Assembly (NCBI GenBank): GCA_052325485.1
Contig: JBKQUU010000042.1
Coordinates: 1,946 to 65,945 of the forward strand
Origin: Acidimicrobiales bacterium
GTDB taxonomy: Bacteria; Actinomycetota; Acidimicrobiia; Acidimicrobiales; Palsa-688
Direction of reading: 5' to 3'
Length of the DNA: 64,000 nt
The position numbers were made by a program, and so were the translations under genes. The notes below the pieces were generated by a model. It saw only the letters and a list, made by a program, of their open reading frames with translations. It was not told where the DNA came from and ran no database searches. Positions 1,330 to 44,323 of the stretch are shown here, in pieces (the first letter of the stretch is position 1; each line of letters begins with the position of its first letter).

Positions 1330-3659
1330 GGCCCGCCGCCGGGGCCGGGACGAGCCGGGGAAGGGCCCACCAGCAGGAGCGCCCGGGCCCTGTCGCGCTG
1401 GCCGAGAGAAGACCGCAGGGCGCCGTAGAGCTGGCGCTGGGTGTCCCAGGCCAGGCGGGCAGCCACGTCGTCGACCGGCCACTCGGTGCTGTACAGGGCC
1501 TGGTCGGCCAGATCGGCCAGGACGTTCGTCGGCGGCCCGAAAGCGTCCCCGAAACGGCTGGTCACCTCGGAAGTCACGTCCTTGCTGGTAGCCGACCCGT
1601 CCACTTGCACACCGAGACGGAACAGCCCGTCGATCAGCTCCAGCCACGCCCCCGCTGTCAGCAGGGCGGGGTCGTCGGTCTGGTGCCGGGCCCGGCGGCG
1701 CAGGCGGCGGCGCAGCGCGGGCAGGCCCAAACCACCGGCCAGCAGAGCCGCCATTATCGCCGCCGGCCCGCCCGCGCCGGCTACGAGCAGCCAGTCGATG
1801 TGCAACGGGGGCGTCAGCTTGACGTTGACCGGCTTGGCGATGGCGTGGGCGGCACCCCCGCCGGGCAGGGCCGTGACCTGCCTGGGTACGGTAGTCGGGC
1901 TCGCCGTCACCTGCTCGGGGGGAGCGGACACGTCGGCGGTGGTCCGCACCGGGGTGGGGTCGGCCACGACCCAGCCGTAGCCCAGCAAGGGCACCTCGTC
2001 CCAGGCCCAGGCGTCCCGGTTGGTCAGCTGGTAGTTGCCGGGCGACAGGGGCCCGGGCGTCGACACCGCCGCCGGGGCCCGGAAGCCGGTTTCCACCCTG
2101 ACCGGTACACCGAGGTACCGGGCCACCACGGCGAAGAAGGTGGCGAACTGCTCGGGCGTGGCCACCCGGTCGACGGTAACGGCGTTCATTACCTGGGCCA
2201 GCGACGTGCCGGCCAACGCCGCCGGTACCGACTGCGACCGGGAGGAAGGCCCGCCCCCCTCGGCAACCCGGCGTTCTTGCGCCCGCAGGGAGCTGGAGAG
2301 GCTCTGTAAGAACGCTAGCGAGGGCGTGGCCGGCCGGCCCGTGAGGCTAACGGCGAAGCGCACGGCGGCGGCCACGTCCGGCGCCGACCCGATGGGCAAG
2401 GCGGTGTAAGCCGACGCGCCCCCTCCGGGCACCTCGGCCCCGAAGGCCAAGCCGCTGGCGGAGGACAGTTGCCCGATCGTGCCCGGGGGTACCAGGGAGA
2501 CAACGCTGTAGGACGCCGGGATGGTGGGCAAGGCGGCCAGCATCCCTGTGCTGCTGTCGGCGTCGACAGCCAGGCCCTCCACTTGCTCGGGGCGGTCCAT
2601 GGCGGGCAGGAGGGGAAGCCCGATGGCCGCTTCGAGGGTGTAGTGCTGCACCAGCTGTTGGGCCTCCGGCTCACTGGCGACCAGGGTGCCAGGGGAGGGG
2701 ACGCGGCCGCCGGTCGGCCGGAACGTGGTCGAAAAAGTCCACGTGTCGCCGTCGTACTCGTCCAGGGCGGCCACCGGTACGTAACCGCTCCAGGCCTTTT
2801 GCACCTGGACGTCGAACAGGTCCCGGGCCGCCCCCTGGGAGCCAGATCTGCGCAGCGCGGCCAGGGTGTCCAGGGGGTCGACGACCAGGCCAGAAAGCAG
2901 CGGCGTCGGACGGCTGACGGTGGCCGGCCTGGAGGCCAGCGCCGGGACGCTCCCGATCCCGGCACCCAAGGCCACCACCAGGGCGGCCGCCATGACCGCT
3001 CCCGCCGTCGCTCGCCGTAAGGAACTACGGCGCCGCGCCGGCTCGGGCCCGGTGGCGCTGCGCCCCGTCCCGGCCTGGGCCGCCTCGGCCTCGATCAGGC
3101 CTTGACGGGCCAGAGCGCACACCACCAGCACCCCGAGCAGGGCGGCGCCCGCGGGAACGGTCGCCCCGGCGGGGCCCGAGGTGGTGGCGACGAAGGCGAA
3201 GGCAAAATAGGCAATGGGCACCGCCGAGCCCAGAGCCGACGGACGGGAAGGGCGCCCCAGGAGCTCGGCGGAAATGGCGCTGCACAGCCAGGTCAGCACC
3301 ATCGGGGCGGCCAGCAACGAGCTGGCCCCGCTCAGGGGCAGGGTCTCGGTGAGCAACTGCGCGGGCACATGGACCAGGCCGGCCCATATGGCGTCGAAAT
3401 CAAAACCGTTGCTGACCACCAGCAAGCTCACCAGACCGGTCACCGACACCGCATAAGAGACGAGCACCGAGGCGCGGGCCACACGCGAGGCGACGACGCT
3501 GATGACAACGGGGAGGACGGCGGCCAGGGCCAGCAGGAGGGGGGCGCGCACGACCTGGTACGCCCGCAACCAGGGCGTGGCGGCGAGGAAGGTGCCGGCG
3601 GCGGCGCTCAGCAGCACGAGGCCCACAAGGAACCTCCGCAAGCCCGGCTTCCAGCTCAC
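1326..3659 (-). CDS. DUF3488/transglutaminase-like membrane protein (TgpA-like), with catalytic Cys and His apparently substituted
   Basis: Multi-TM N-terminus. Transglutaminase-core-like segment ATPEQFATFFAVVARYLGVPVRV...DAWAWDEV...GWVVADPTP. A late TM helix plus a DUF4129-like C-terminal tail. GTG at 3659 overlaps the DUF58 stop (GTGA). Confidence 0.75.
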   Translation of the reverse strand: MSWKPGLRRFLVGLVLLSAAAGTFLAATPWLRAYQVVRAPLLLALAAVLPVVISVVASRVARASVLVSYAVSVTGLVSLLVVSNGFDFDAIWAGLVHVPAQLLTETLPLSGASSLLAAPMVLTWLCSAISAELLGRPSRPSALGSAVPIAYFAFAFVATTSGPAGATVPAGAALLGVLVVCALARQGLIEAEAAQAGTGRSATGPEPARRRSSLRRATAGAVMAAALVVALGAGIGSVPALASRPATVSRPTPLLSGLVVDPLDTLAALRRSGSQGAARDLFDVQVQKAWSGYVPVAALDEYDGDTWTFSTTFRPTGGRVPSPGTLVASEPEAQQLVQHYTLEAAIGLPLLPAMDRPEQVEGLAVDADSSTGMLAALPTIPASYSVVSLVPPGTIGQLSSASGLAFGAEVPGGGASAYTALPIGSAPDVAAAVRFAVSLTGRPATPSLAFLQSLSSSLRAQERRVAEGGGPSSRSQSVPAALAGTSLAQVMNAVTVDRVATPEQFATFFAVVARYLGVPVRVETGFRAPAAVSTPGPLSPGNYQLTNRDAWAWDEVPLLGYGWVVADPTPVRTTADVSAPPEQVTASPTTVPRQVTALPGGGAAHAIAKPVNVKLTPPLHIDWLLVAGAGGPAAIMAALLAGGLGLPALRRRLRRRARHQTDDPALLTAGAWLELIDGLFRLGVQVDGSATSKDVTSEVTSRFGDAFGPPTNVLADLADQALYSTEWPVDDVAARLAWDTQRQLYGALRSSLGQRDRARALLLVGPSPARPGPGGGP

Positions 3660-4786
3660 CGGACCACCCAACCGTCCCAGGCCTGGGCCAGCTCGTTGGC
3701 GGTGGTGGCCACGAACACCCTCACCCCAGGGTAGGCGGGCGCCGGCACCGGGCGGGGTACGAGCGAGGTCACTATGACATGGTCGAAGCGGCTCATCGAG
3801 GCGATGGCCGGCAAGCTCTCCACATCGAGCGCCCCCGTCACCACGACCAGGGCGCTACCCCGGTCGCGCCGCAGCGGCACCAGCTGAGCGGACAGGGAGC
3901 CGCCGGTCGTGGGGACCACGTCAGTCAGGTAATCGACCAGGGGCACAGGGTCCCGCTGGCCGGGGCCCCCGACGCGCGCGCCCGCCGTCGTCCTGATCTG
4001 GACGGGGGCCTTGCCCCAGGACATGGACGTGGCGACCGAGGCGGCCACGTCCATCGCCTCCTCGAACGTCTCGGGCGAGTAAACCTCGGGCCGCAGGTCG
4101 ACCAGCACGACGGTGTACGGCTGTGCGGTGTCGACGTAATGACGCACCACGAGCTTGCCCAGGCGGGCTGTCGAAGGCCAGTGCACCGTGCGCAGGTCGT
4201 CGCCGATCACGTACTCGCGCAGGCGGTGGAAGGTGACACTGCCCTGGGGCGACGTGTCGCTCGACGGGCCCTCCAGGTTCTGGGACGTGCCCGTGGGCAG
4301 CGGTCTCAAGGACAGCACCCGGGGGTGGACGGAGATCACCTGCGGATCGCCCAGGGCCGTGACCCGGCGGCACAGGCCGAAAGGGTCCGCCTTGGGTATC
4401 TCCACCGGGCCCACGCTGTAGGTGCCGCGCTGGGACGTGGGCAGGCGGTAAGTCCGCAGGCTCGTCGCCGCTCTGGCCAGGGTGGGGAGCTCGGCGCGAA
4501 ACACCGTCGTGCCCAGGCGCTGTTCTATCACCAGCCCGTTCAGCGCTCGCCAAGACCGGTTGGTCGCCTGGACCACGGCGATGGCGGGCTGCCCCTTTTC
4601 GACCCGGGGCGGCTCGACGGCCCGGACCAGTTGGAGCCTAGGCGAGCGCACGACGTACACGACCGCCCCCGCCACCAGGGCCAGGAGGCCCGCGCCCAAG
4701 ACGATCAGGGGAGCCCATCGGGCCGCCAGGCCCACGACGAGCAGCACCAGACCGGCCGTGCCCGCGCCCCAGCCCAATCTCGTCAC
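3656..4786 (-). CDS. DUF58 domain protein (MoxR partner), module 1
   Basis: Two N-terminal TM helices. DUF58 signature HRLREYVIGDDLRTVHW. Lies immediately downstream of a MoxR ATPase. GTG start at 4786. Confidence 0.85.
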   Translation of the reverse strand: MTRLGWGAGTAGLVLLVVGLAARWAPLIVLGAGLLALVAGAVVYVVRSPRLQLVRAVEPPRVEKGQPAIAVVQATNRSWRALNGLVIEQRLGTTVFRAELPTLARAATSLRTYRLPTSQRGTYSVGPVEIPKADPFGLCRRVTALGDPQVISVHPRVLSLRPLPTGTSQNLEGPSSDTSPQGSVTFHRLREYVIGDDLRTVHWPSTARLGKLVVRHYVDTAQPYTVVLVDLRPEVYSPETFEEAMDVAASVATSMSWGKAPVQIRTTAGARVGGPGQRDPVPLVDYLTDVVPTTGGSLSAQLVPLRRDRGSALVVVTGALDVESLPAIASMSRFDHVIVTSLVPRPVPAPAYPGVRVFVATTANELAQAWDGWVVR

Positions 4787-9902: not shown

Positions 9903-10448
9903 TCAAACCGGCAAAGCCAGGCCCCCGGCGACCATCGCCGCCAGGGCGGCGAAGACCTCGAGCCACCCTGACAGAGCTCCGGCCCGCGCCGAGGGGACCA
10001 TGGCCACGGCGGTGACCACGGCCACGAGGACCAGGCTGGTCGCCAGCATCCGGCGCTGTCCCCGGACCACACCGCTCGGGACCGCCGACTCCGCCTGGTG
10101 CACGGCCAGCAGGTAGCACAACAACAAGGCGCCGAGAAGGCCGGTGTGCCATGGACTGCTCTTGTGCAGGGTCTCGAGCACCACCATGGCGACGGCGGCG
10201 CCCGTCTCCCATCCCAGCCCCTGGAGAAGGGCGTCCGCCGTGCCCGCCAGGTTTACCAGGGCCCCGGCGAACAACCCCTCGTGGTCTCGAACGGCGTCCT
10301 GGCGGACGATGCGCAACACCCCGGCCAGCACACAGCCGGCGGCGACCACGAGGAACAACCCCCCAGGCCAGCCGGTGCCGCCCAGGGGGACGGCGGACCA
10401 CAAGGTGCCGGCCGCGCCGAGCAAGGCCACAACGACGATCGACCTCAC
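9903..10448 (-). CDS. hypothetical polytopic membrane protein
   Basis: GTG at 10448 overlaps the upstream DUF58 stop (GTGA). About 5 hydrophobic helices (VVVALLGAAGTLW, GLFLVVAAGCVLAGVL, LLGALLLCYLLAV, ATSLVLVAVVTAVAMV, VFAALAAMVAGGLAL). No family recognised. Confidence 0.55.
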   Translation of the reverse strand: MRSIVVVALLGAAGTLWSAVPLGGTGWPGGLFLVVAAGCVLAGVLRIVRQDAVRDHEGLFAGALVNLAGTADALLQGLGWETGAAVAMVVLETLHKSSPWHTGLLGALLLCYLLAVHQAESAVPSGVVRGQRRMLATSLVLVAVVTAVAMVPSARAGALSGWLEVFAALAAMVAGGLALPV

Positions 10449-11743
10449 TGCCGGCCCCCCCGCGCCCGGCGGGCCCGCTGGTCCACGGGCAGGGCGAGGG
10501 CACCTACGCCGTCCCAGTTCACCACCGTGACGCCCAGTTCGCCCAGGGAGAACCGGATGGCCTGGCGTTCCATCCGCCATATCCGCTCCGCTAAGCGGTC
10601 CAGCCTCCGCCGCGCCCTGCGGGGCGCGGCGTCGAGGACGTCCACGACCAGCACCGGGAAGCTCCGCTGGCGCAGGTCACGCAGGGTCTCTACGAACTTG
10701 GCGTCCAGCAGAGGGCTGAAGGCGACCACCGCCGCCCCGGGCGGGAGGGCGGCGCGCGGGAGACGAGCGATGTCGTTTCCCGACGACCAGCCGGCGCGAC
10801 CTACGACAATGGCGTCCAACAAGCGGAAGAACTGCCGGTGGCCCAGGCCGGGGGCCAGCCAACGCATGCGAGCGCCGAAGAAGACCAAGCCCACCCGGTC
10901 CCTGGCGTCCAGGTAGGTACGGGCCACGCCCAACGCCCCCCGCAGGGCGTGGTCCACCGAGGTGGAACCCAGCTCGCCCACGTCGGAGGTGGCGTCCACC
11001 AGCAAGACGACGTCCTGGGAACGCTCGGCGGCGAACGTGTTCACCTGCAGGCGTCCCCGACGAGTGGTGGCCGCCCAATTGATACTGCGCTGGCGGTCCC
11101 CGGCTACGTACTGGCGTACCCCGGCGAACTCCACCCCGTCGCCCGCAGAACGGGCCGGGTGGTCCCCGACCCGGTTGGCCAGGCGTCCCCGGACTACCGC
11201 GCCGGCGTGGTGCGCCGGCAGCGGGTAGCAGTCGACTTCGGCCAGGAGGACGAAGCCGTGGCATTCGAACATCCGGGCCCGGTCCCACAGGACGACCTCC
11301 AAGCTCCCCAGACGGCGCCGGCCCCAACGGGACACTTCGAGGCACAACGTGGCGTTACTGGACGCCGCCCTGTCGGCACCTCTCACCGCCCGGGCGCCGT
11401 CGGCGGGATGGACGACCAGTTCAACGGCATGGTCCCCCTGACCGCTGACGGTCACGTCCAAGGCGATCTGCTCGCCCTCGTAGGCCCGCGACGCGCTCGT
11501 GCGGACGCTCACCTCCACGGCCCGAGGTTTGGGGCTACGCCAGACGAACAACAAGACCAGGGCGGGGGCGGCGACAGCGACCAGTGCGGGGCGCCTCGTC
11601 AAGACGGCCAGGACCAACCCGACCAGGGCCAGGTTGAACAGACGCCGCGCGTGCCGGGAGACGGCCCAGTCCAGCTCAAGCCGGACCGGGCCGGCGCTCC
11701 GTGCCGGTGGCGCCAGACCCTCGGTCCCCGGGCTAGCTATCAC
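10445..11743 (-). CDS. DUF58 domain protein (MoxR partner), module 2
   Basis: N-terminal TM pair. DUF58 signature VEFAGVRQYVAGDRQRSINW. vWA-like VVLLVDATSD. GTG start at 11743. Confidence 0.85.
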   Translation of the reverse strand: MIASPGTEGLAPPARSAGPVRLELDWAVSRHARRLFNLALVGLVLAVLTRRPALVAVAAPALVLLFVWRSPKPRAVEVSVRTSASRAYEGEQIALDVTVSGQGDHAVELVVHPADGARAVRGADRAASSNATLCLEVSRWGRRRLGSLEVVLWDRARMFECHGFVLLAEVDCYPLPAHHAGAVVRGRLANRVGDHPARSAGDGVEFAGVRQYVAGDRQRSINWAATTRRGRLQVNTFAAERSQDVVLLVDATSDVGELGSTSVDHALRGALGVARTYLDARDRVGLVFFGARMRWLAPGLGHRQFFRLLDAIVVGRAGWSSGNDIARLPRAALPPGAAVVAFSPLLDAKFVETLRDLRQRSFPVLVVDVLDAAPRRARRRLDRLAERIWRMERQAIRFSLGELGVTVVNWDGVGALALPVDQRARRARGGRQ

Positions 11744-12767
11744 CGGCGCCCCGCCCCGCCCGGGCCGTCCCCGCCGAGGGGCCCGCAGGCGCTCCCGCGG
11801 CGGGGTCGGTGCGCGGCGTGGGCACGGACGCCATCACCGCGGCGATGACGTCGTCGGAGCTGACCTGGCGCACCCAGAGCTCCGGGCGCAGCACGACCCG
11901 GTGGGCCAGAGTTGGCACGGCGACCTGCTTTATGTCGTCCGGGATGACAAAGTCGCGCCGGCGCATGAGCGCTTCGCCCCGCGCCAGCTGCACCAGGGCC
12001 AAGCTGCCCCGGGGGCTGGCCCCGACCTGGATTTGGGAATGGCCCCGGGTCGCGGTGACTATCGCCACGACATAGTCGAGCAGGTCAGGGGATACTTCTA
12101 TCTGCTCCAGGGAGCCGCGCATGGCCAGTAGTTCGGACGCGTCGATGACCTGGGCCAGCTCGACGTGGTCGTGGCCCCGGTCCAGCCGGCGTTGCACCAT
12201 GGCGACTTCCTCGCCCGGCTGCAGGTAGCCCAGGCGCAGCCTCATCAGGAAGCGGTCGAGCTGAGCCTCGGGCAGCTCGTAGGTGCCCTCGTACTCGATC
12301 GGGTTGTCGGTGGCCAGCACCACGAACGGCTGAGGCAGCCTCCTGGTCTCGCCGTCGACGCTCACCTGGCCCTCCCCCATGGCCTCGAGCAGCGCCGCCT
12401 GGGTCTTGGGCGGTGTGCGGTTGATCTCGTCGGCGAGCAACAAGTTGGTAAAGACCGGCCCGGGACGGAAGACCATCTCACTGGTCCGTTGGTCGTACAA
12501 AGGCGCGCCCACCACGTCAGAGGGCAGCATGTCCGGGGTGAACTGGATACGGGCGAAATCGAGCCCCAGGACCTTGGCAAAGGACCTGGCGATCAGGGTC
12601 TTCCCCAGCCCCGGGAGATCCTCGAGCAGGATGTGGCCGCCGGCCAGGATGCCGATCAGCACCAGCTCGAGCGTGCGCCTTCGCCCCACCACCACGCGCT
12701 CGATCTCGTCCAGGACGGCCCCGCACAGCTGAGCCGTCTCGGACGGCGTGCGCCCAGGCCCGGTCAC
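11733..12767 (-). CDS. MoxR-family AAA+ ATPase, module 2
   Basis: GHILLEDLPGLGKT, LLADEINRTPPKTQAALLEAM, ATDNP and LPEAQLDRF motifs. GTG at 12767 overlaps the upstream stop (GTGA). The remainder of ORF 11733..13322 is an out-of-frame extension over the upstream gene. Confidence 0.9.
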   Translation of the reverse strand: MTGPGRTPSETAQLCGAVLDEIERVVVGRRRTLELVLIGILAGGHILLEDLPGLGKTLIARSFAKVLGLDFARIQFTPDMLPSDVVGAPLYDQRTSEMVFRPGPVFTNLLLADEINRTPPKTQAALLEAMGEGQVSVDGETRRLPQPFVVLATDNPIEYEGTYELPEAQLDRFLMRLRLGYLQPGEEVAMVQRRLDRGHDHVELAQVIDASELLAMRGSLEQIEVSPDLLDYVVAIVTATRGHSQIQVGASPRGSLALVQLARGEALMRRRDFVIPDDIKQVAVPTLAHRVVLRPELWVRQVSSDDVIAAVMASVPTPRTDPAAGAPAGPSAGTARAGRGAGDS

Positions 12768-13312
12768 AGTTGTTCCAGTCTCTGGACGAGCCGGGCCAGC
12801 GTCGTGGGCGGGATGCCGGGACCTTCCAACCGGTCCGCCAGGGGACGCCCGGGGTCGACCCAGGCCCATAGGTCCAGATCCCGGGGGCGGGCGCAAAGGA
12901 GGCCGCGGGCTACTTCGGGCTCGTGGTAGAGGCTGACCCCGTGGCCCTCTGAGAGCCTGGCCGCCAACAGGTGCTCGAGCTCGGGGCCCAGGCTGGCGTG
13001 GTAGGAAGCCATCGAGCGCATGGCGTCCGTGAGATCCGTCCGCCAACGCCAGTAGTTGATGAACGACCCGGTGGGCGGGCGCCGGCCGGTGGGGATCTCG
13101 GGCTGGGGCGGCGGGGCCGGGACCGGGGCCAGCAGGCGGTTGACCACCACCAGGGACAGAGCCGAGAAGATGAGCACCACCAGTACGGTCGCCGCCCCGC
13201 CGGCGACGGCATAAGCGGCGATGGCACAGGCAGCCAGGACCACCCCGGCGATGGCCAGCTCGGGCCGGGCGCTCCCCCACGGGGAGCGGCCCTGGCGTTG
13301 CCGGCTGGTCAC
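12764..13312 (-). CDS. hypothetical membrane protein (2 TM plus soluble C-terminal domain)
   Basis: 182-aa ORF with two adjacent hydrophobic helices (ELAIAGVVLAACAIAAYAV, TVLVVLIFSALSLVVV). Its start at 13312 overlaps the upstream stop (ATGA) and its stop overlaps the MoxR start. Confidence 0.6.
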   Translation of the reverse strand: MTSRQRQGRSPWGSARPELAIAGVVLAACAIAAYAVAGGAATVLVVLIFSALSLVVVNRLLAPVPAPPPQPEIPTGRRPPTGSFINYWRWRTDLTDAMRSMASYHASLGPELEHLLAARLSEGHGVSLYHEPEVARGLLCARPRDLDLWAWVDPGRPLADRLEGPGIPPTTLARLVQRLEQL

Positions 13313-14235
13313 GACGTGGCACCTGTCGGGACAGCCCGAGGGTGGTCGAGCTCCAAGACCAGCTCAGCCAGCGCCCTCTCGGCCGCGTCCCGCTGAGCGG
13401 CGTAGAGAGGGTGGGTGGAGAACCGGGCCTCGTAAAACAACGAGGTGAGCCGCGACGCCGAGGCGGCGGTGATCAGGAGAGTACGGGCGGCCCGGGCCAA
13501 CAGCTCGTCCGGGGTCTCGGCGCTGGCCCGTGCCGCTCCCGCTCGGGCCAGGCTCTCCTCCATCGCCATGTAGCAGGCGATGATGGCCGCCCGGGCATCG
13601 TCTAGCTCGAGCAGGGCACGCTGTCCCCAGATGAGCGCTTCCTGCAGGGCACCGCCGTACTCCTGCGCCGGCGCCTCGGGCTCCGCCGCCGGTCGGTGGC
13701 GGCCGTGGCGCATGATCATCAGCGCCACCGCCACGGTGGCCAGCACCAGGACGGCGGCAGCGAGCGCGTAGAGGATCTCCGACAGAGGGAAGTGAGAGCT
13801 CGTCCCGCCGGTCCCCGGCAACGGCAGGCGTCCCGGGCGCACGACGGTTTGCGGTACCGGCCCGCGCCCCGCCCGGGCCTGGAACGGCCCGATCTTGACC
13901 ACCAGCAGGACAAACGTCACGACCAGTGCCGATATGCCGGCACTCAGGAGGTACAACAGCGCCGTGCGCAGCCTGGCCGCTAGGAGCTGGTCGGGCGGCG
14001 CCCTCCGGTTGCGCACGGCCAGGGCCAGCGCCAGGACGACGCACACCACCAACAGGGCGGCGACGACCTCGGCGTCGTGAGGCTTGGACCGGTTGCCCCA
14101 TGACGGCGATGAGACCTTGCCATGCAACCCGACGGCCACCAAGAGCGTCAGGAGGACCAAAAGGGCCAGGCGGGGAGCGGCCCCCGCTCGACCGGACAGG
14201 TCCGGCTCCCTCGCCCAGCGAGCTAGCCCCCTCAC
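13309..14235 (-). CDS. DUF4129-like domain membrane protein
   Basis: C-terminal region DDARAAIIACYMAMEESLARAGAARASAETPDELLARA...LTSLFYEARFSTHP resembles DUF4129, which accompanies MoxR/DUF58/transglutaminase loci. Several TM helices. Start placed at GTG 14235. The ORF is open to 14361, but that part is made of tandem repeats. Confidence 0.6.
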   Translation of the reverse strand: MRGLARWAREPDLSGRAGAAPRLALLVLLTLLVAVGLHGKVSSPSWGNRSKPHDAEVVAALLVVCVVLALALAVRNRRAPPDQLLAARLRTALLYLLSAGISALVVTFVLLVVKIGPFQARAGRGPVPQTVVRPGRLPLPGTGGTSSHFPLSEILYALAAAVLVLATVAVALMIMRHGRHRPAAEPEAPAQEYGGALQEALIWGQRALLELDDARAAIIACYMAMEESLARAGAARASAETPDELLARAARTLLITAASASRLTSLFYEARFSTHPLYAAQRDAAERALAELVLELDHPRAVPTGATS

Positions 14236-14320
14236 CAACGCCCCCGTTCTGTGCCTTCCCCGCCGACCATTGGCGCGGCTGGTCGGCGCCCGACTGCCGC
14301 CACAGTATTGCAACCGAGGT

Positions 14321-14378
14321 CCAAGTCCGGACCAGCGGGCAAGTCCGGACCAGGCGGGCAAGTCCGGACCAGGCGGGC
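14321..14378. repeat. three-copy 19-nt tandem direct repeat (aagtccggaccaggcgggc) in the divergent promoter region
   Basis: Copies at about 14322-14340 (one base shorter), 14341-14359 and 14360-14378. Followed by a duplicated cgaactag at about 14383 and 14400. Confidence 0.75.
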
Positions 14379-16475: not shown

Positions 16476-17471
16476 ATGAGTGTCGCCAACACCCAAAACC
16501 CACCAAATAGCCTGGCACCAACCGGCGAGGATCTGACTGCGCATTTCGACATTGTTTGCCGCGGCTTGCGCCGTGGGCGGTTGACTCCCGTGCTCGGCTC
16601 CGGGGCAAGCCTGTTCGGGAGGCCTGCGCCCGGCGGTGCTGAGTGGACAGGTGCACCCAGCGCCGAAGAGCTCGCGTCACGGCTGTCGAAGGAGTTCCAT
16701 CTGCCCACGGAGCTCGCCAGTTCCCGCGAGCTTTTGGCCGTGGCCCAATGGATCTCGGCCATGAAGGGCGGCTCGACACCGCTCTACGAGGAGCTGCACG
16801 ACATCTTCGACCGTGACCTCCCAACCACGCCGCTCCACCATTTCCTGGCTGAGGTACCCGGCCGCCTGCGGGAAAAGGGCCTACTGGGCGACCCCCCTTT
16901 ATTGGTCACGACGAATTACGACGACCTTTTGGAGCAGGCGCTCGACGAGCGCGCCGAACCGTACGACCTGGTCGTGTACATGGCCGATGGAGAGCACCAC
17001 GGCCACTTTTTCCACCAACCGCCGGGAGGGTCGCTGACGCTGATCGAAGAGCCCCGCGAATACCTCGACGCCAGTCCCGAGGAACGCACGGTCGTATTGA
17101 AGCTGCACGGCTTCGTCAACCGGAACGACCCCAACCACGATAGTTATGTCATCACCGAAGACCACTACATCGAGTACCTCACGCACGCCGACCTCGATGA
17201 GCTTCTGCCCGCTTCTGTGCTCACCCGGCTGCTCAACTGCCATCTGCTGTTCCTCGGTTACAGCCTGCGGGACTGGAACCTCCGCGCCATCCTGTACCAG
17301 CTGCGGGAGAAAGCCAAGCCGAACGACTGGTGGGCGGTCCGCCGCGACTTCGACCCCGTCGAGCAAAAGACGTGGGCGAAAAAGAACGTGGCCATGATCG
17401 GGATGACCCTGGAGGACTACCTCGTCCAGCTGAGGAACGCTTTCGAGACCTGGCTCGCCGACCGCTCTTGA
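16476..17471 (+). CDS. SIR2-like domain protein (SIR2_2-type, predicted NAD+-consuming effector)
   Basis: Motifs PVLGSGAS, LLVTTNYDDLLEQAL (Asn codon at 16914-16916), VVLKLHGF (His codon at 17106-17108), YVITEDHY, LLFLGYSLRDWNLR. This order and spacing is typical of defence-associated SIR2 domains. Confidence 0.8.
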   Translation: MSVANTQNPPNSLAPTGEDLTAHFDIVCRGLRRGRLTPVLGSGASLFGRPAPGGAEWTGAPSAEELASRLSKEFHLPTELASSRELLAVAQWISAMKGGSTPLYEELHDIFDRDLPTTPLHHFLAEVPGRLREKGLLGDPPLLVTTNYDDLLEQALDERAEPYDLVVYMADGEHHGHFFHQPPGGSLTLIEEPREYLDASPEERTVVLKLHGFVNRNDPNHDSYVITEDHYIEYLTHADLDELLPASVLTRLLNCHLLFLGYSLRDWNLRAILYQLREKAKPNDWWAVRRDFDPVEQKTWAKKNVAMIGMTLEDYLVQLRNAFETWLADRS

Positions 17472-20400
17472 TAGACCCGCCTCCCACCACCCGGGCCTCG
17501 GGGCCTTACCAAGGCCTCACGCACTTCACCGAGGCCGACGCCGCCTTCTTCTTCGGGCGGGAGAGCGAGCGGGACCTCATCGTCGCCAGCCTGAAAGCGG
17601 CCCGGCTCACTCTGGTCTACGGCCAGAGCGGCGCCGGGAAGAGCTCGCTGTTGCGGGCGGGCGTGGCCGCCAGCCTGCGGGAGGCGGCCCGGCGCGACGT
17701 CCACCGTTTCGGGACGGCCGAGTTTGTCCCGGTGGTCTTCAGCAGCTGGCGCGACGACCCCATAGCCGGCATCGCCGCCGCCATCGACGCGTCGGTGCAG
17801 GAGTTCGCCACCCCGGACGGCGGCACGGCCCCGGCGGGGGGGCCGGCCACACCTCCGGGGAACCTGGCCCAGCTCATCGAGACGGCGGCGTCCCGGGCAC
17901 AGGCGTCATTGTTGTTGATTTTCGACCAGTTCGAGGAGTACTTCCTCTACCACGGCTCAGAGCAGGGCCCGGCCTCGTTTTTCGAGCAGTTCTCGCAGGC
18001 GGTGGGCCGGGAAGGTCTGCCCGCCGGCTTCCTGGTCGCCATCAGGGAGGACGCCCTGGCCCAGCTGGACCGGTTCCGCGGCCGGATCCCTAACCTGTTC
18101 GGCTCGTACCGTCGCATAAGCCCGCTCAACAAGCAGGCGGCGAGGCAGGCCATCCGCCGCCCCATCGAGGAGTACAACCGCCAATTGCCCCCCGAGGAAC
18201 AGGTGACCGTCGAAGCCGAGCTGGTCGCCGCCGTGGTCGAGCAGGTTTCCACCGGCAAGGTGAGGCTCGAGACGGTGGGCGCGGGGACCTTGGACGGCAG
18301 GGCGGCCGATGCCGTGGAAGCTCCCTACCTGCAACTGGTCATGACCCGCATCTGGCAAGAGGAGGTGGCTTCAGGCTCTCACCAACTGCGGCTGTCCACC
18401 CTGGAAGAGCTGGGCGGCGCCCAGAAGATCGTCCGGAGCCATCTCGACGCCACCCTCGGCGCCCTGTCCGCTGAGGACCAGGACATAGCCGCCGACGTCT
18501 TCCACCACCTCGTTACGCCGTCGGGCACCAAGATCGCCCACGCCGTGGCGGATCTCGTGGACTACACCAACCACGCCGAGGACCGGGTGACCGGCGTCCT
18601 GGACCGCCTGGGCGAGGGGGACACCCGCATCGTGCGCTTCGTAGAACCTCCCATGGGAGCCCAAGGCCCGCCCCGCTACGAGGTATTCCACGATGTGCTG
18701 GCCCCCGCCGTGCTCGACTGGCGTGGGCGGCACGCCGCCCGCCGGCTCGAGGCGCAGAGGGAGGCGGCCGAGCAAAGAGCACGCGTCCAACGGGGCCGGG
18801 CGCTAGTGGCGTGGGGCACCGCGGGCCTGGCCGTCGCCCTCCTCGCCGCCTTCGTGATCAGCAACGCCGTGGCGCAAGGGGACGCCAACCGGTCACGCGT
18901 GCTGGCCGCCGATGCTGTCGCCAACGTGGGCGGGGACCCCGAGCTGAGCGCCCTGCTGGCCCTGTCCGCCATGGACAAGAGCCCCACGCCCCAGGCCGTG
19001 GCCGCCCTGCGCCAGTCCTTCCCCCAGATCGAAGAAGAAAAGACATTGGACTTCGGCACGGCCGTGTCCGCCACGGTCTTCAGCCCAGACGGTAAGCAGC
19101 TGGCCGCGGGCACGACCGACAGCGGGGGCATCAAGATATGGGACATGGGGCGACCCGGCCCGCCTCAGGTCCGCGCCACCGACTTTTCCTACGTAAACGG
19201 CCTGGCTTTCAGCCCGAACGGCCGCGACATAGCCGTCGTCGGCCAGGTCCGGTCCGACTGGCGTCCGCGCCAATGGCCGGGCGTGGAAATCCTGGCCGCC
19301 GCCGGCACAGGAAAAGCCTCGCCTTTGTACGTGCCGGCGGCCAGCGGGGACAGCCGGCCCGTAGGCGAGATGGTGGCCTGGGAGGGGCCCGTCAATGGTG
19401 CCGACCACCTCGTCACCGTCGACACCAACGGCTTCATCTGCGAGTACCACGCTGGCCGGCCCCTGGCCGGGCATTGCGCCGATACCCCTTTCAACAGCCT
19501 GAGCACGGTCAGCCTGGACCAAGCGGGGACAGAAGCGGCGGTAACCGGCGGCTCGGGGGCCACGGTATGGTCGGTCCCCGGTTTCAAGGAGATTTTCCCC
19601 ACCAACAACACCGTATGGGGCGTCGGCAACGTCAGTAGCGCCGCCCTCAGCCGCAACGGGCGCGAGCTGGCGACCACCAGCGTCGAGGGCATCACCCAAG
19701 TTACGGACTTGTACGGGGCCCACACCGTGACCGCCCAGCTCAGCGCCGGAGGTGACCTACAGACGGCCGCCTTCAGCAACGATGGCTCCCGGCTCGTCAC
19801 GACCACCGACCTGGGACAGACAACGGTGTGGCAGCTCGAACAGGCCTCACAACTGGGCGGGATAGAGGTGGCTCAGCTCAATTGCGACTGCGGCGTGGTC
19901 TACTCCGCAGAGTTCGACCCCGCCGATCCCGACATCCTGGTCACCGGCAGCGAGGACGGGATGGTCAGGGTGTGGGACGCACAGCCGCGCGAACTGTTGT
20001 TCTCTTCTCAGGTGAGCCAGTCTCTGCCCTGGTCCGGCGCCAGTGACGGTGTGGGTGACGCGTTGTTCGTGAAGGGCCTGGGCGACGTGGTCGCCCTCAC
20101 CTCCGGTGTGTCCGTGACGGGTGAGAGCGTCAACCCCGACAAGGCCGTCGTGGTGGACCTGAGCACCGGTCGGCAAACCACGGTGCTGGACGGCTCTCAA
20201 CCGGCTGACATCCAGTCCATTGCCGTTTCCCAGACGCCGGGCCCGGGCATGGCCGCCACCGCCGTCGGCGTGGTGGAAGTGGGGAGCCAGTTCGAGGTCA
20301 GAGGGTGGCGACTGACCAACAATGCCCAGGGGGAGGCCCGGCTGCAACCGGCCCGCATGGCCCTGCCCAGGCAATGGCCGGGGGCCCCGCAAAGCGTGGC

Positions 20401-21124
20401 CATCAGCCCCGATGGTTCCTGGCTGGCCGTCATTTTCTCGGACAACAACATCGTCGAGATCGTCGACCTGACCGATGGCCGGACCTTGGAGCTCCCGAGA
20501 ACAGCGAGCTATGCCTATTTCGTCAACAGCATGGCGTTCAATGCCGCCGGCAACCGGGTGCTCGTTTCCTACAACGACGGAGTGGCGTGGGAATGGAGCC
20601 TGGGCCAAGGGCACCGAGCCGATAGCAGTCAGTTCCTCGGTGCGTTCAGGAACCCGGCCCGGGACGCCGTTGTCTGGGACGCGCAGTTCAGCCCGGGAGG
20701 CCAGCGCGTGGTCCTGGCCGACAACGCCGGCGACGTGACTGTGTTCAATGCCGGCACCCGCAAGGTGGTAGCGGAGCTCAACACGGGTGGAGGACAGGTC
20801 AATACGGCGGTGTTCAGCCCGGACGGGTCGGAGGTACTGACGGCCGGGGACGACGGCACGGTCCGCATATGGAACCTCGCCGGCCGTAGCCAGTTGGCGG
20901 CCTTCGGTCCCTTCGACGAGCCCTTCCCGACAGCGGTCAACACGGCCGTGTTCGGGAGCTACCGCGGTAGCGCGGTGGTTATTTCGGGCAGCAACGACGG
21001 CTTTGTCCGGGTCCTGTCGGCCCAAGCGGCAACGGCCAACTTGGGTGACCTGGAGCAGGCGGCGCGGGCGCGTGTGAGCCGGGGCTACACCGCCGCCGAG
21101 CGAGCCGAGTACATCGACGGGTGA
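17468..21124 (+). CDS. STAND-class P-loop NTPase (nSTAND-like), with a hydrophobic helix and a C-terminal array of about 14 WD40 repeats
   Basis: N-terminal PYQGLTHFTEADAAFFFGRESE. Walker A GQSGAGKSSLLRAG (17621-17647). Walker B LLLIFDQFEEYF. Hydrophobic helix ALVAWGTAGLAVALLAAFVISNAV. WD40 blades such as FSPDGKQLAAGTTDSGGIKIWDM, VTGSEDGMVRVWDA, LTAGDDGTVRIWNL, SGSNDGFVRVLSA. Start inferred as TTG 17468, overlapping the SIR2 stop (TTGA). The frame is open from 17330. Confidence 0.85.
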   Translation: MIDPPPTTRASGPYQGLTHFTEADAAFFFGRESERDLIVASLKAARLTLVYGQSGAGKSSLLRAGVAASLREAARRDVHRFGTAEFVPVVFSSWRDDPIAGIAAAIDASVQEFATPDGGTAPAGGPATPPGNLAQLIETAASRAQASLLLIFDQFEEYFLYHGSEQGPASFFEQFSQAVGREGLPAGFLVAIREDALAQLDRFRGRIPNLFGSYRRISPLNKQAARQAIRRPIEEYNRQLPPEEQVTVEAELVAAVVEQVSTGKVRLETVGAGTLDGRAADAVEAPYLQLVMTRIWQEEVASGSHQLRLSTLEELGGAQKIVRSHLDATLGALSAEDQDIAADVFHHLVTPSGTKIAHAVADLVDYTNHAEDRVTGVLDRLGEGDTRIVRFVEPPMGAQGPPRYEVFHDVLAPAVLDWRGRHAARRLEAQREAAEQRARVQRGRALVAWGTAGLAVALLAAFVISNAVAQGDANRSRVLAADAVANVGGDPELSALLALSAMDKSPTPQAVAALRQSFPQIEEEKTLDFGTAVSATVFSPDGKQLAAGTTDSGGIKIWDMGRPGPPQVRATDFSYVNGLAFSPNGRDIAVVGQVRSDWRPRQWPGVEILAAAGTGKASPLYVPAASGDSRPVGEMVAWEGPVNGADHLVTVDTNGFICEYHAGRPLAGHCADTPFNSLSTVSLDQAGTEAAVTGGSGATVWSVPGFKEIFPTNNTVWGVGNVSSAALSRNGRELATTSVEGITQVTDLYGAHTVTAQLSAGGDLQTAAFSNDGSRLVTTTDLGQTTVWQLEQASQLGGIEVAQLNCDCGVVYSAEFDPADPDILVTGSEDGMVRVWDAQPRELLFSSQVSQSLPWSGASDGVGDALFVKGLGDVVALTSGVSVTGESVNPDKAVVVDLSTGRQTTVLDGSQPADIQSIAVSQTPGPGMAATAVGVVEVGSQFEVRGWRLTNNAQGEARLQPARMALPRQWPGAPQSVAISPDGSWLAVIFSDNNIVEIVDLTDGRTLELPRTASYAYFVNSMAFNAAGNRVLVSYNDGVAWEWSLGQGHRADSSQFLGAFRNPARDAVVWDAQFSPGGQRVVLADNAGDVTVFNAGTRKVVAELNTGGGQVNTAVFSPDGSEVLTAGDDGTVRIWNLAGRSQLAAFGPFDEPFPTAVNTAVFGSYRGSAVVISGSNDGFVRVLSAQAATANLGDLEQAARARVSRGYTAAERAEYIDG

Positions 21125-21131
21125 GGGCCAA

Positions 21132-22997
21132 GTGTACGTAGACCTCCTCAGCCACCAGCCGAGACGGCGGCGGCGGGCGGCCAAAACCCTTTGGGGCAAA
21201 CACATTGTGCGCCACTGGGACCGCCATAAACCCGCCGTGCTCGCCGTTCTCACCGGCGCCGTGGTCGTCCTGGCCATGACCGGTTTCTCCCAGACCAAGC
21301 CTTCCCGCCCGCTGCTGGACTCGCTCTACTCCTCCCTTCAACTGTTCACCCTCGACGGCAACTCCAGTCAAAACGCCAACGTTTATATCCAGATCGCCCG
21401 TTACCTGGGCCCGTTCGTGCTCGGCTACGCCGCCGTGGGCGCCATCCTGGCCATGTACGGGGAGCAGTTCAACCGCTTCGTGGTCCGGCGCCTGCACCGC
21501 CATGTGGTCATTGCCGGGTTGGGAGCGGCCGGTTACCGTCTAGCCAACGCTTTCGCCGCCGACGGTTGGCCGGTGGTGGCCATCGACAGCGACGCCGATA
21601 ACGTTTCCATCGCCGGCTGCCGCGAGCGCGGCATACGGGTGCTGGTCGGCGACGCCACCGACCCAAAGCTGTTGCGGCAAGCCGGCTTGGACAAAGCCGA
21701 GCTCCTGGTCGCACTGTGTGGCAAGGACCAGGTCAACATCGACGTGGCCGCCGCCGCCCGCACCATCTCGGCCGGCGAGAGGTCCCAGGTGCTGACCGCC
21801 TTGGCCGGCTTCGACGACTTCCACCTGTGGCAGGTCATGAAGGCGCCGGCCCTGGTGGACCGGGACGAGTCGGGCTTCCGGCTGGAACTGGTAAATCTCT
21901 GGGCGGTGGCGGCCGAGCTCCTGCTCGAGGAACACCCCCCCTTCCCCCTGCAACACCCCGGCTCTCCCCACGTAGTCGTCGTGAGCGACGAAGGGCTGGC
22001 CGACAGCCTGCTGATCGGGGTCCTGCGCCGATGGGTGACGGCGCCGCGGGGGCCGTCCGACTTCCTGCGCCTCAGCCTCGTGGGGGCACCGCCCAAGGTG
22101 CTCGACGACCTGGCGGCAAGGAACCCCGAACTGGGCGACATCTCTTCCTGCCGGCTCGAGCTGTGGGGCCGGGGCCGCGCCGGGGGCAACGGTGGCGGTG
22201 CCAATGTGGGCGCCCCAACGGGCACCGAGACCCTCCCGGGGACACCGGCCGATGCCAGCGCCGTCTACGTCGCTCTGGCCAGTGAAACCGCCGCCCTCAC
22301 CACGGCGCTCACCCTCCGGCACCAGATGGGGCACTGGGACGAGACACCCATCGTGGTCGTCGTCGAGGACGACGACGCCGGCGTGGCCCACGCCGTCAAG
22401 CGAGGTGGGCCCGCCATGAAGGGCATACACGCCTTCGGGTGGCTCAGCCGGGCCCTGCTCCCGGCGCCCCTCCTGGAGAGCACGGCGACCGAGGTCATAG
22501 CCCGCCTCGGCCATCTCGTGCACTGCCAGCACCAGAACGAGCTCGGCGTGACCGAGCGGGACGACCCCTCGCTCGTGGCGTGGGAGGCGCTTCCCGCCAG
22601 CCTGCGCGAGTCCAACCGGCTCTGGGCCGACGGCATTGCCGCCAAGTTGGGGGCCCTGCGCTGCGTGGTGGTGCCCGCCCCCCTGCTCGACCCCGAGAGG
22701 GCGAGCTTCGGTTTCAGCGAAGCAGAGGTGGCGAGACTGGCGCCGTTCGAACACGAACGGTGGTCAGCCGACATGAAGCGCATGGGCTACCAGGCCGGCC
22801 CGCGCGACTCGCGCCATCACCCCTTCATCGACCTGCCCTTCGAGCAGTTGCCGGAGGACAACAAGGAAAAGGACCGTGCCCACGTCCGGGCCATCCCCCA
22901 GGTCCTGGCCCGGGCCGGCTTCCGGGTCCAGCGCCTGGACGAGAGGACCGTTGGTACTGCCACCAGGGAGGAATCAAGCGGCGTCCACGGTTGTTGA
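21132..22997 (+). CDS. membrane protein: 2-TM channel-like N-terminus, TrkA-N (RCK, NAD-binding Rossmann), second degenerate Rossmann-like region, C-terminal RyR domain
   Basis: TM1 PAVLAVLTGAVVVLAMTGF. Pore-like LYSSLQLFTLDGN plus TM2 YLGPFVLGYAAVGAILAMY. HVVIAGLGAAGYRLANAF...VVAIDSD...VLVGDATD (GxGxxG at 21516-21533). RyR-like WEALPASLRESNRLWADGIAAKL...FEHERWSADMKRMGYQ...LPEDNKEKDRAHVRAIPQVLARAGFRV. GTG start lies 7 nt after the STAND stop. Confidence 0.7.
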   Translation: MYVDLLSHQPRRRRRAAKTLWGKHIVRHWDRHKPAVLAVLTGAVVVLAMTGFSQTKPSRPLLDSLYSSLQLFTLDGNSSQNANVYIQIARYLGPFVLGYAAVGAILAMYGEQFNRFVVRRLHRHVVIAGLGAAGYRLANAFAADGWPVVAIDSDADNVSIAGCRERGIRVLVGDATDPKLLRQAGLDKAELLVALCGKDQVNIDVAAAARTISAGERSQVLTALAGFDDFHLWQVMKAPALVDRDESGFRLELVNLWAVAAELLLEEHPPFPLQHPGSPHVVVVSDEGLADSLLIGVLRRWVTAPRGPSDFLRLSLVGAPPKVLDDLAARNPELGDISSCRLELWGRGRAGGNGGGANVGAPTGTETLPGTPADASAVYVALASETAALTTALTLRHQMGHWDETPIVVVVEDDDAGVAHAVKRGGPAMKGIHAFGWLSRALLPAPLLESTATEVIARLGHLVHCQHQNELGVTERDDPSLVAWEALPASLRESNRLWADGIAAKLGALRCVVVPAPLLDPERASFGFSEAEVARLAPFEHERWSADMKRMGYQAGPRDSRHHPFIDLPFEQLPEDNKEKDRAHVRAIPQVLARAGFRVQRLDERTVGTATREESSGVHGC

Positions 22998-42727: not shown

Positions 42728-43536
42728 AGCTCTGACGCCCCTCGGGCACCCAGCCGCGCCGAAGCTCGGCCCGCCGCCTCCACAACCGCACCGACCACCG
42801 CTGGCGCCGCCGGCACACCGCCCAGGAGGTAGCTCACCCCGATGGCACCGCAGCAGCCACGGTCGTTGAACACAGGAGCAGCCACGCACCGGATGCCCAC
42901 GGCCGTTTGCCCGTCGTCGACGGCGTAGCCGAGCCGGTGCACCTTCTCCAGCTCGAGCCCGAGCTCGGACGCCGTCGCGTGGCCGGCGCCGCCCTCACCG
43001 GGCACACCGGGCACACCGGGCACACCGGGCACACCAGAGGCACGGTAGGCGAGTTGGGCCTTGCCTACGGCCGTTACCGCCGCGGGCAGGCGGGCACCGA
43101 GCGAGCTGGCCAGCTTCAGGCCCAACCCGGGGGGGTCGTGCTTGGCCAGGTACACGACCTCCTCGTTTTCGAGCACGGCAAAATGCGACGTTACGCCCAG
43201 CGACTCCGTAAGCCACTGCAGTTCCGGCGTGACGCTGCGCGCCGGCGTCATCGTCCGCAGGTACGCCGCTCCCACCTCGAAGCTGCGCAGGCCGAGCGTG
43301 TAGGAGCCTTTTTCGTCAGCCACACAGAACTCCGAAACCACCAGTGCCCTGAGCAAGGTCAGGGCACTGCTCTTGGGCAACTTCAGCTGGGTCGCCACCT
43401 CCCCCAGGGTCAGCGGCTCGTCGCTCCGGCTCAACAGCTCCAGGATCGAAAGAGCTCGTAGCGCCGCCCGGTTGGCCACCGGCGCCCAGGCGTGCTTCTC
43501 GTTGCCGGGCAATGCCCCGGCGCGCCCCGAGGTCAT
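42724..43536 (-). CDS. IclR-family transcriptional regulator carrying an in-frame (GVP)4 insertion
   Basis: N-terminal wHTH ALRALSILELLSRSDEPLTLGEVATQLKLPKSSALTLLRAL. IclR effector-domain pattern (GLKLASSLGARLPA, YAVDDGQTAVGIRCVAAPV). Confidence 0.85.
   Translation of the reverse strand: MTSGRAGALPGNEKHAWAPVANRAALRALSILELLSRSDEPLTLGEVATQLKLPKSSALTLLRALVVSEFCVADEKGSYTLGLRSFEVGAAYLRTMTPARSVTPELQWLTESLGVTSHFAVLENEEVVYLAKHDPPGLGLKLASSLGARLPAAVTAVGKAQLAYRASGVPGVPGVPGVPGEGGAGHATASELGLELEKVHRLGYAVDDGQTAVGIRCVAAPVFNDRGCCGAIGVSYLLGGVPAAPAVVGAVVEAAGRASARLGARGASEL
42996..43035. repeat. 9-nt tandem repeat (caccgggca) x4 plus a partial copy, inside the IclR coding sequence
   Basis: The + strand reads caccgggcacaccgggcacaccgggcacaccgggcacacca. 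On the minus strand this encodes GVPGVPGVPGVPG. Confidence 0.85.
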
Positions 43537-44321: not shown

Positions 44322-44323
44322 GG

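Follow-up and report, generated by a model that had tools for sequence, protein, structure and literature searches.

The locus considered here raises the question whether three adjacent genes, encoding a SIR2-family protein (gene 1), a STAND NTPase with WD40 repeats (gene 2) and a membrane protein that combines TrkA-N and RyR domains (gene 3), form a single functional system and, if so, what this system does. The genes are located in a stretch of 64,000 nucleotides from an Acidimicrobiales bacterium (contig JBKQUU010000042.1 of assembly GCA_052325485.1), hereinafter the window, whose nearest relatives are Acidimicrobiales metagenome-assembled genomes (MAGs) of peat and bog metagenomes. An initial annotation, made from the sequence alone, had described these genes as a candidate conflict system linked to nicotinamide adenine dinucleotide (NAD), in which the STAND protein senses an invader and activates the SIR2 protein, and the membrane protein could read out the ensuing change in NAD. 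The three genes, hereinafter the trio, are a functional unit and probably comprise an undescribed, membrane-associated, NAD-centered conflict module involved in cell suicide, growth arrest or defense.

Conservation of the three-gene linkage

The genes of the trio are tightly packed: the TTG start codon of gene 2, which belongs to the nSTAND1 clade (see below), lies within a TTGA shared with the stop codon of gene 1, and the GTG start codon of gene 3 is found 7 nucleotides (nt) past the TGA stop codon of gene 2. These junctions, as well as the three open reading frames (ORFs) and the coordinates of all motifs given in the initial annotation, were reproduced. The 4-nt overlap between the SIR2 and nSTAND1 genes recurs at four other loci (L041, L042, L043, and L045; L denotes a surveyed locus).

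The linkage was surveyed by gene-3 profile scans of species-representative genomes and metagenomes, complemented by contig look-ups. The clade that includes the window (L001, L006, L007, L020-23) contains the trio, and so do nine other lineages, all within Acidimicrobiales and Solirubrobacterales, so that co-conservation extends well outside close relatives. In seven of these lineages, the identity of gene 3 to the window protein is 57% (L002/L032), 54% (L003/L026), 52% (L025), 49% (L005, from Solirubrobacterales), 48% (L010), and 47% (L008 and, separately, L029/L031); the remaining two are L040/L041 and L045. Three arrangements of the trio were identified, namely SIR2-STAND-Trk, Trk-SIR2-STAND (L005), and one in which the SIR2 and STAND genes are divergent from gene 3 (L010). 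The flanking genes are wholly different between the lineages and include glycosidases, gamma-glutamyltranspeptidase, zinc-ribbon proteins, ABC transporters, and others. With unrelated flanks and three arrangements across at least 10 lineages that have diverged from each other, the trio is a functional unit; when genes stay linked although synteny is lost and their own order is rearranged, this is a standard mark of functional coupling. The three proteins also co-diverge, their pairwise identities co-varying with a rho of ~0.78, a descriptive value only, given that the pairs are non-independent. In nine further pairs of SIR2 and gene-3 clusters, the longest contigs are identical in size.

Additional genes are found next to some of these loci. 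In L002 (11812-13497) and L031 (11809-13560), the start of a gene for a secreted-type S8/S53 (pro-kumamolisin-like) peptidase overlaps the stop codon of gene 3, and this peptidase may be a fourth member of the system in some trio lineages. In L043, a gene for a 1631-aa S8 peptidase is convergent on a SIR2-nSTAND1 pair. In L042 (13558-15621), a SIR2 and nSTAND1-WD40 pair is followed by genes for two proteins of 327 and 350 aa that contain N-terminal hydrophobic segments resembling signal peptides and show no Pfam match.

The SIR2 protein

The product of gene 1 is a member of the SIR2_2 family (Pfam PF13289; E = 1e-27, 97.5 bits, cut-off 24.5). Its residues N147 and H211, in the motifs TTNYD and KLHG, are invariant in an alignment of 52 homologs, and in a phmmer comparison these motifs align with the catalytic motifs of DSR2 (ITTNYD and LLKVHG). 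Entries in the PDB name the mutants DSR2 H171A and KomC H146N; the catalytic Asn and His are N133 and H171 in DSR2 and N112 and H152 in ThsA. The AlphaFold2 (AF2) model of gene 1 (mean predicted local distance difference test, pLDDT, 90) yields KomC, ThsA, DSR2, SIR2-HerA, and Avs5 as the top Foldseek matches. Going by this model, the closest SIR2 structures are all NAD-depleting antiphage enzymes rather than deacetylating sirtuins. Gene 1 thus appears to encode a defense-type SIR2 protein with both catalytic residues and is a predicted NADase.

A STAND NTPase with a predicted extracytoplasmic sensor

Gene 2 contains an NTPase module of the nSTAND1 family (PF20703; E = 4e-48, 165 bits, cut-off 27.1) and, toward the C-terminus, many WD40 and beta-propeller Pfam matches, the best of which has an E value of 1e-25. 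The previous estimate of about two propellers is plausible given the ~700 aa covered by these matches. Between the NTPase and the sensor, there is a single predicted transmembrane (TM) helix. In every SIR2-linked nSTAND1 protein examined, a strongly hydrophobic segment of 19-23 residues, with Kyte-Doolittle hydropathy of 2.3-3.1 over 19 aa, is found in the equivalent position, its sequence not being conserved. The flanks of this segment contain 4-7 Lys or Arg residues on the N-terminal side vs 2-4 on the C-terminal side, which corresponds to an N-in/C-out orientation. The conservation of the TM helix implies, therefore, that the WD40 propellers are probably extracytoplasmic, unlike the cytoplasmic sensors of the Avs type. 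The simplest topology, a cytoplasmic NTPase with propellers exposed outside the cell, would resemble that of PknB-type receptors. Accordingly, of the initial view of gene 2 as a STAND-WD40 switch, the domain assignment stands, whereas a plain cytoplasmic location probably does not.

The WD40 part is the fastest diverging piece of the trio, as indicated by the identity of 34-52% for whole STAND proteins compared with 48-63% for the NTPase part. The sensor differs among the relatives: some have WD40 repeats, whereas a Cys-rich domain is found in L041 and a coiled coil with an unknown domain in L043.

A channel-like membrane protein with tandem RCK and RyR domains

Gene 3 contains a readily identifiable TrkA_N domain (E = 4e-21). 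The match to the Pfam RyR family (PF02026), at 26.6 bits, is 0.8 below the cut-off of 27.4, with homologs scoring above it. The RyR assignment is supported independently by phmmer matches of the C-terminus to RyR repeats in the PDB (E = 4e-12; 3nrt/6uag from Bacteroides thetaiotaomicron and the RyR1 chimera 6uhi) and by the fold, the best Foldseek match of this region being Repeat12 of human RyR3 (848-1055, with ATP, ~195 columns). The AF2 model (pLDDT 86; predicted template modeling score 0.82) consists of a membrane helix M1, a pore-helix-like helix, a second membrane helix M2, two Rossmann (RCK) domains and a four-helix tandem repeat. The best matches of the model are GsuK, a K+ channel of Geobacter gated by multiple ligands (4gx0, 4gx5, and 4gx2, including the NAD-bound form; E = 4e-10), TrkA, and MthK; against viral structures, the whole model matches mostly Rossmann folds. 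These comparisons uphold the two-TM pore-like N-terminus, the first RCK domain and the C-terminal RyR domain that had been recognized at the outset, and add two elements that had been missed, a second RCK domain and a degenerate first RyR repeat. By the model, gene 3 is thus likely a GsuK-like, tandem-RCK, channel-like protein with an additional module resembling RyR Repeat12. In RCK1, G129 is invariant and G131 and G134 are nearly so; the RCK2 region has no Pfam match and contains a low-confidence loop (348-366).

The two RyR repeats differ in their motifs. In repeat 1, H461..H464 replaces HxxW, an invariant RESN495R replaces ExDR, and the canonical ligand residues are absent; judging by the alignments, this repeat is degenerate yet highly conserved. 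In repeat 2, H541, W544, H563, and D581 are invariant or nearly so and, by motif and spacing in an alignment via the B. thetaiotaomicron protein, are equivalent to H75, W78, H100, and D117 of the phage protein RyDEP. A 2026 preprint reports that phage RyR-domain proteins bind or cleave cyclic ADP-ribose (cADPR) or ADP-ribose (ADPR); in RyDEP, these four residues contact ADPR, and H75 and D117 form the catalytic dyad (PMC13232231). The conservation of these cADPR/ADPR ligand residues strengthens the initial suggestion that gene 3 could read changes in NAD.

The pore region appears to have changed within the family. The distant relatives P0047-49 contain TTVGYGD and a Pfam Ion_trans_2 match at the filter position, which in the window clade is occupied by TLDGNSSQNAN. 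With the TVGYG-type filter gone in the window clade, K+ selectivity and perhaps conduction are therefore lost.

Distant relatives and the tandem-RyR family

An exhaustive search of representatives with the RyR tandem as the query yielded 3853 representative clusters at E < 1e-3. Among the 113 best matches scanned with Pfam, 94 contain TrkA_N and 16 contain DUF7701; fusions of the tandem RyR to RelA/SpoT, SARP-type regulators (BTAD/Trans_reg_C/TPR) or a protein kinase are rare and confined to single members. Many of the tandem-RyR proteins (P0188-P0332) are 700-1300 aa long and contain two or three R12 modules.

Several distant relatives of gene 3 have partners akin to those in the trio. In L019, an alpha/beta-hydrolase gene is followed by a gene 3 relative (38% identity) and then by a gene, overlapping the stop codon of the latter, for a protein (L019:3407-5209) that combines a TIR_2 domain, a TM helix and WD40 repeats in one polypeptide, with no NTPase. 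Judging by its domain order, this protein would mirror the SIR2 and nSTAND1-TM-WD40 pair, with the NAD enzyme inside, a TM helix, and the propeller outside. In L014, gene 3, a WD40 protein and a DUF4062-NACHT protein are encoded in this order. In L016 (9722-11626) and L018 (6165-7991), the gene for a TrkA-N/RyR channel that carries a K+ filter overlaps by 4 nt a downstream gene, which encodes a partner of ~610-630 aa with an N-terminal 'VIGVTGHR' and four TM helices. This partner has no PADLOC match, and its sub-threshold matches to DUF4231 (SLATT-like; E = 3e-4) and YAcAr (SLOG; E = 0.017) allow only tentative labels. In these two channels, Asn replaces the His and Asp ligand residues of RyR repeat 2; L016 also encodes a TIR-kinase resembling PD-T4-6. 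In L017, the TrkA-N/RyR gene is directly followed by a gene for an 866-aa protein (2018-4618) with a central P-loop NTPase domain (weak AAA/nSTAND5 matches) and a C-terminal RyR domain, and then by genes for an ABC exporter and a HigB-like toxin. Hydrolase-TPR-S, GIDE, and NACHT-TPR genes are found near the gene 3 relative in L037; nothing suggestive is present among the neighbors in L011. In this small sample, the partners recur as NAD-cleaving domains (SIR2, TIR, and the TIR-like DUF4062) joined with STAND or WD40 sensors.

Comparison with known systems

Neither a catalog nor a paper was found that describes the trio. In PADLOC-DB v2, there are only partial matches for the SIR2 protein (the SIR2 part of ThsA, and PDC-S25) and none for gene 3; the STAND protein matches no Avs model and shows marginal matches to the P-loops of mad3 and mad8 (E ~4e-3). 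No family in NCBIfam 20 covers any of the three proteins, and no paper treating RyR together with TrkA, or together with both SIR2 and STAND, surfaced in full-text literature searches. A TrkA-N/RyR partner or the trio is not mentioned in the searched text of the papers on nSTAND1; in the 2026 STAND survey, a search by term gives no occurrence of SIR2, RyR or TrkA and, for WD40 sensors, only those of the cytoplasmic type. The scope of the RyDEP preprint is limited to phage proteins, cellular R12 domains being a matter of speculation there (PMC13232231).

As in Avs5, a SIR2_2 domain that has the catalytic Asn and His is combined in the trio with a STAND NTPase whose C-terminal part is a repeat sensor; the other structural nearest neighbors, DSR2, ThsA, KomC, and SIR2-HerA, share the same type of SIR2 domain with these residues. 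Unlike Avs types 1-5, which are single polypeptides with TPR sensors, the trio has a separate, translationally coupled SIR2 protein, an NTPase of the nSTAND1 clade, and a WD40 sensor; unlike Avs5, it also has a TM helix that splits the NTPase from the sensor and a third, conserved membrane protein. The NTPase family (PF20703) and the combination of a variable effector with a variable repeat sensor are those of the nSTAND1 conflict systems of multicellular bacteria (Kaur, Burroughs, Iyer, Aravind; eLife 2020/2021). SIR2 is named in these papers as one of the effectors that target NAD in related systems (Kaur et al., eLife 2020/2021), and nSTAND1 has been defined as a conflict-system clade of STAND NTPases (PMC8195603). 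The trio departs from those systems in its trans-encoded effector, which comes with no recognized adaptor domain, and in its predicted extracytoplasmic sensor.

Gene 3 shares the fold of a pore followed by RCK1 and RCK2 with GsuK, MthK, TrkA, and KtrA, and has the GxGxxG motif and the acidic end of beta2 for ADP or NAD binding; it differs from GsuK, MthK, and TrkA in the loss of the filter, an identity of ~12% and the extra Repeat12-like module. As in RyR/R12-domain proteins (PF02026), the HxxW...HP...DR ligand residues are present and the tandem repeat forms an R12-like domain. Unlike the phage RyR-domain proteins, this module is host-encoded, intramolecular rather than homodimeric, and fused to a membrane RCK protein, and its repeat 1 is degenerate. 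By analogy, the trio may be likened to Thoeris (including the type II effector TM-Macro) and to the ADPR-gated TRPM2, where an NAD-derived nucleotide made upon alarm is read by a binding domain that acts on an effector, and the L019 relative of gene 3 is paired with a TIR protein, the domain used by Thoeris. Unlike Thoeris, the trio employs SIR2 rather than TIR, no TIR, SLOG or Macro sensor is encoded at the window locus, and the match to ThsA is confined to its SIR2 part (over residues 200-284). The genuinely new elements of the trio are the predicted transmembrane topology of the STAND protein and the conserved RCK-RyR partner.

Functional interpretation and alternatives

We tentatively favor, at a probability somewhat short of even, an outside-in alarm module in which a STAND receptor activates a SIR2 NADase whose activity is read out by the RCK/RyR protein. 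The nSTAND1 protein, judging from its topology, would be a single-pass PknB-like receptor, with the outward WD40 propellers responding to a cue from outside the cytoplasm, for example, attack by a phage, damage to the envelope or a molecule of a competitor. Binding of the ligand would drive NTP-dependent oligomerization of the STAND protein, which would recruit and activate the trans-encoded SIR2 protein, by analogy with Avs5, DSR2, ThsA, and KomC; the activated SIR2 protein, again by analogy, would hydrolyze NAD+ to ADPR and nicotinamide. Domain content and gene neighborhoods suggest that gene 3 could form a filter-less tetramer in which RCK1 senses the loss of NAD+ and/or the RyR pocket binds ADPR or a derivative. 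Gene 3 might then turn the signal into a membrane event, either an ion leak with depolarization or closure, and thus act as a second effector or a checkpoint. A role in defense is inferred from the class of the SIR2 protein, the affiliation of the NTPase with the nSTAND1 conflict clade, the hypervariability of the sensor, and the presence/absence polymorphism described below. A farther-reaching proposition, which we consider rather unlikely, is that TrkA-N/RyR proteins are channels or channel-derived effectors gated, via the Repeat12-type pocket, by ADPR-class nucleotides produced by SIR2 or TIR NADases under an outside-sensing STAND protein.

Several points weigh against the alarm module as outlined. 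The topology of the STAND protein is predicted from hydropathy and charge bias alone, and extracellular canonical WD40 propellers are unusual. The filter-less pore of gene 3 may not conduct, the ADPR-type ligand of its RyR module is putative, and we know of no SIR2 enzyme that makes a dedicated signal. The SIR2 family is far larger than that of gene 3, with 2985 matches at E < 1e-10 compared with ~50 gene-3 relatives first found. The trio is far rarer than SIR2-nSTAND1 pairs, for many of which (L042 and L043) gene 3 is dispensable; conversely, gene 3 (52-63% identity) is found alone amid transporter and metabolic genes in L004, L024, L027, and L046. Thus, of the three-part system proposed initially, the co-conservation of the genes holds and the obligatory participation of gene 3 does not. 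In the MAG contigs of L007, L008, L010, L040, and L041, the frames of the STAND gene or gene 3 are split by frameshifts; the contigs of L040 and L041 are 99.9% identical yet have different genes broken, which is more readily explained by errors of assembly or long reads than by pseudogenes, with genuine decay as the alternative. Finally, no defense-island, prophage, plasmid or mobile-element context is present at any of the loci, where the neighbors are metabolic or housekeeping genes. A scan of viral contigs yielded no relative and a tblastn search of plasmids only weak Sinorhizobium RCK matches; a phage or plasmid location is therefore without evidence. An extra 3.6 kb between the DUF6183 and SIR2 genes in L007, considered as a possible defense hotspot, was ruled out because it encodes a sugar-acid kinase-like protein, a dehydrogenase and a glycoside hydrolase.

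The patchy occurrence of the individual genes bears on the alternative that two separate things have been brought together, namely a self-sufficient SIR2-nSTAND1 cassette and, in gene 3, an independent nucleotide-regulated channel or regulator, their adjacency reflecting synteny or an insertion site. L004 and L046 are syntenic with L040 and L041 (Acidimicrobiaceae; 80-87% nt identity) except for a 3.7-kb SIR2-nSTAND1 segment (L040/L041:8788-12490) located exactly between an SBP gene and gene 3; the empty site (L004:9534-9994 and L046) keeps gene 3 and its FtsX neighbor. The SIR2 and STAND genes therefore behave as an accessory cassette that gene 3 can outlive. This clean insertion or deletion of the cassette beside a resident gene 3, along with the SIR2-nSTAND1 pairs that lack gene 3, the solitary gene 3 among transporters, and the large size of the TrkA-N/RyR family, fits such independence of the two parts. 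Nevertheless, we consider it improbable because the adjacency outlasts complete turnover of the flanks as well as three arrangements in two orders, the three proteins co-diverge, and distant relatives of gene 3 are paired with TIR-TM-WD40 and DUF4062-NACHT proteins, which is unexpected for a housekeeping channel.

An explanation that we regard as improbable to the same degree casts gene 3 as a brake, that is, a glycosidase or sponge for an ADPR-type product of SIR2 or TIR, or an NAD-sensing RCK shut-off, with an immunity or antitoxin-like role that would guard the cell against accidental firing of the system. Both equivalents of the RyDEP catalytic dyad, H541 and D581, are kept in the SIR2-linked clade, and the activities described to date for RyR-domain proteins consist in inactivation of signals, not in their transduction (PMC13232231); survival of gene 3 without SIR2 and STAND is also what can be expected of an orphan antidote. 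However, a soluble enzyme or sponge has no need for the conserved channel-like membrane domain and the tandem-RCK ring, many SIR2-nSTAND1 pairs lack a gene 3-like partner, and linear ADPR, the usual product of SIR2, has no ribose-ribose bond for cleavage.

Quite improbable, in our opinion, is a non-defense transmembrane signaling system in which the WD40 ectodomain would read an environmental or developmental cue and the SIR2 protein, as a deacylase or ADP-ribosyltransferase acting on specific targets, possibly the channel, would tune ion flux or metabolism instead of killing the cell: the housekeeping neighborhoods at all loci, the PknB-like receptor topology and the chromosomal, non-mobile setting are compatible with it, whereas the nearest SIR2 structures and sequences all belong to NAD-depleting defense enzymes, nSTAND1 is documented in conflict systems, and the hypervariable, replaceable sensor and patchy presence between close genomes are typical of conflict genes.

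Gene features and surroundings

The features of the trio that underlie the alarm-module interpretation are listed in Table 1.

Table 1. Features of the three genes, with coordinates in the window
Feature	Position	Strand	Basis or remark
Gene 1, SIR2_2, NADase type	16476..17471	+	stand-alone ORF, 331 aa
SIR2 NAD loop GSGAS	16596-16610	+	
SIR2 TTNYD, Asn147	16914-16916	+	
SIR2 KLHG, His211	17106-17108	+	
Gene 2, nSTAND1 NTPase-TM helix-WD40	17468..21124	+	ORF, 1218 aa, TTG start
nSTAND1 NTPase module, aa 13-439	17504..18784	+	PF20703, aligned aa 13-439
STAND N-terminal leader PYQGLTHFTEADAAFFFGRESE	17504-17569	+	motif check
Walker A GQSGAGKS	17621-17644	+	
Walker B IFDQFEE	17918-17938	+	
Predicted single TM helix LVAWGTAGLAVALLAAFVI, aa 446-464	18803..18859	+	hydropathy; between NTPase and sensor
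WD40 beta-propeller sensor region, aa ~520-1190	19025..21037	+	Pfam WD40/beta-propeller matches; predicted extracytoplasmic
Gene 3, TrkA-N/RyR, channel-like membrane protein	21132..22997	+	ORF, 621 aa, GTG start
Membrane part: M1 (aa 35-55), pore-helix-like (61-73), 'filter' loop TLDGNSSQNAN (74-83), M2 (84-108)	21234..21455	+	AF2 model
RCK1/TrkA-N Rossmann domain, aa 124-260	21501..21911	+	Pfam, alignments
RCK1 GLGAAG	21516-21533	+	
RCK1 acidic beta2 end VVAIDSD	21573-21593	+	
Second Rossmann-like domain (RCK2), aa 280-440	21969..22451	+	AF2 model; GsuK/TrkA tandem-RCK match
RyR repeat 1, divergent, aa 452-515	22485..22676	+	alignments, model helix pattern, RyR3 Repeat12 Foldseek match
RyR repeat 2, aa 530-601	22719..22934	+	phmmer 3nrt/6uag, 6uhi
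RyR repeat 2 EHERW, H541 and W544	22749-22763	+	
RyR repeat 2 RHHP, H563	22812-22823	+	
RyR repeat 2 EKDR, D581	22866-22877	+	

The trio is flanked on the 5' side by genes for DUF58, DUF4129, PIG-L, and DUF6183 proteins and on the 3' side by those for Lon, pirin, DyP, and EAL-HDOD proteins. No mobile-element genes were seen in these flanks, so that the housekeeping setting described in the initial annotation is upheld. The G+C content at third codon positions is 0.80-0.87 in the trio, similar to that of the adjacent genes, and the overall G+C content of the window is ~70%. The segments 43000-47000, 52000-57000, and 61000-64000 have a lower G+C content (0.63-0.66 vs ~0.70-0.72 elsewhere) and could be acquired DNA. 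The DUF58 (vWA-like) and DUF4129 genes, upstream of PIG-L on the minus strand (10445-14361), have the look of a MoxR/vWA-type cluster. No sigma-70-like promoter was detected, terminator-like sites are no more frequent than expected by chance, and the window contains no tRNA or Rfam elements.

Implications

To our knowledge, immunity that involves SIR2 and STAND proteins has hitherto always consisted of cytoplasmic sensing followed by NAD+ depletion. The module analyzed here adds two features for which no description was found, a STAND protein with a sensor predicted to lie outside the membrane and a conserved, channel-like partner with a nucleotide pocket. Pockets of the type present in gene 3 are used by phages to destroy the signals of Thoeris and, in animals, are part of ryanodine receptors. 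If gene 3 is ligand-gated, it would link NAD-derived immune signaling to bacterial ion flux and provide a small, tractable model for the long-debated connection between (c)ADPR and RyR. Should the ADPR-gated-channel reading be true, the module would represent a prokaryotic forerunner of the control of RyR and TRPM2 by (c)ADPR, a new class of nucleotide-signal effectors in the immunity of bacteria, and, for a product of SIR2, the first example of a role as a signal. Altogether, proteins that combine TrkA-N with tandem RyR constitute a large, uncharacterized family that is repeatedly found beside SIR2, TIR, and STAND genes.

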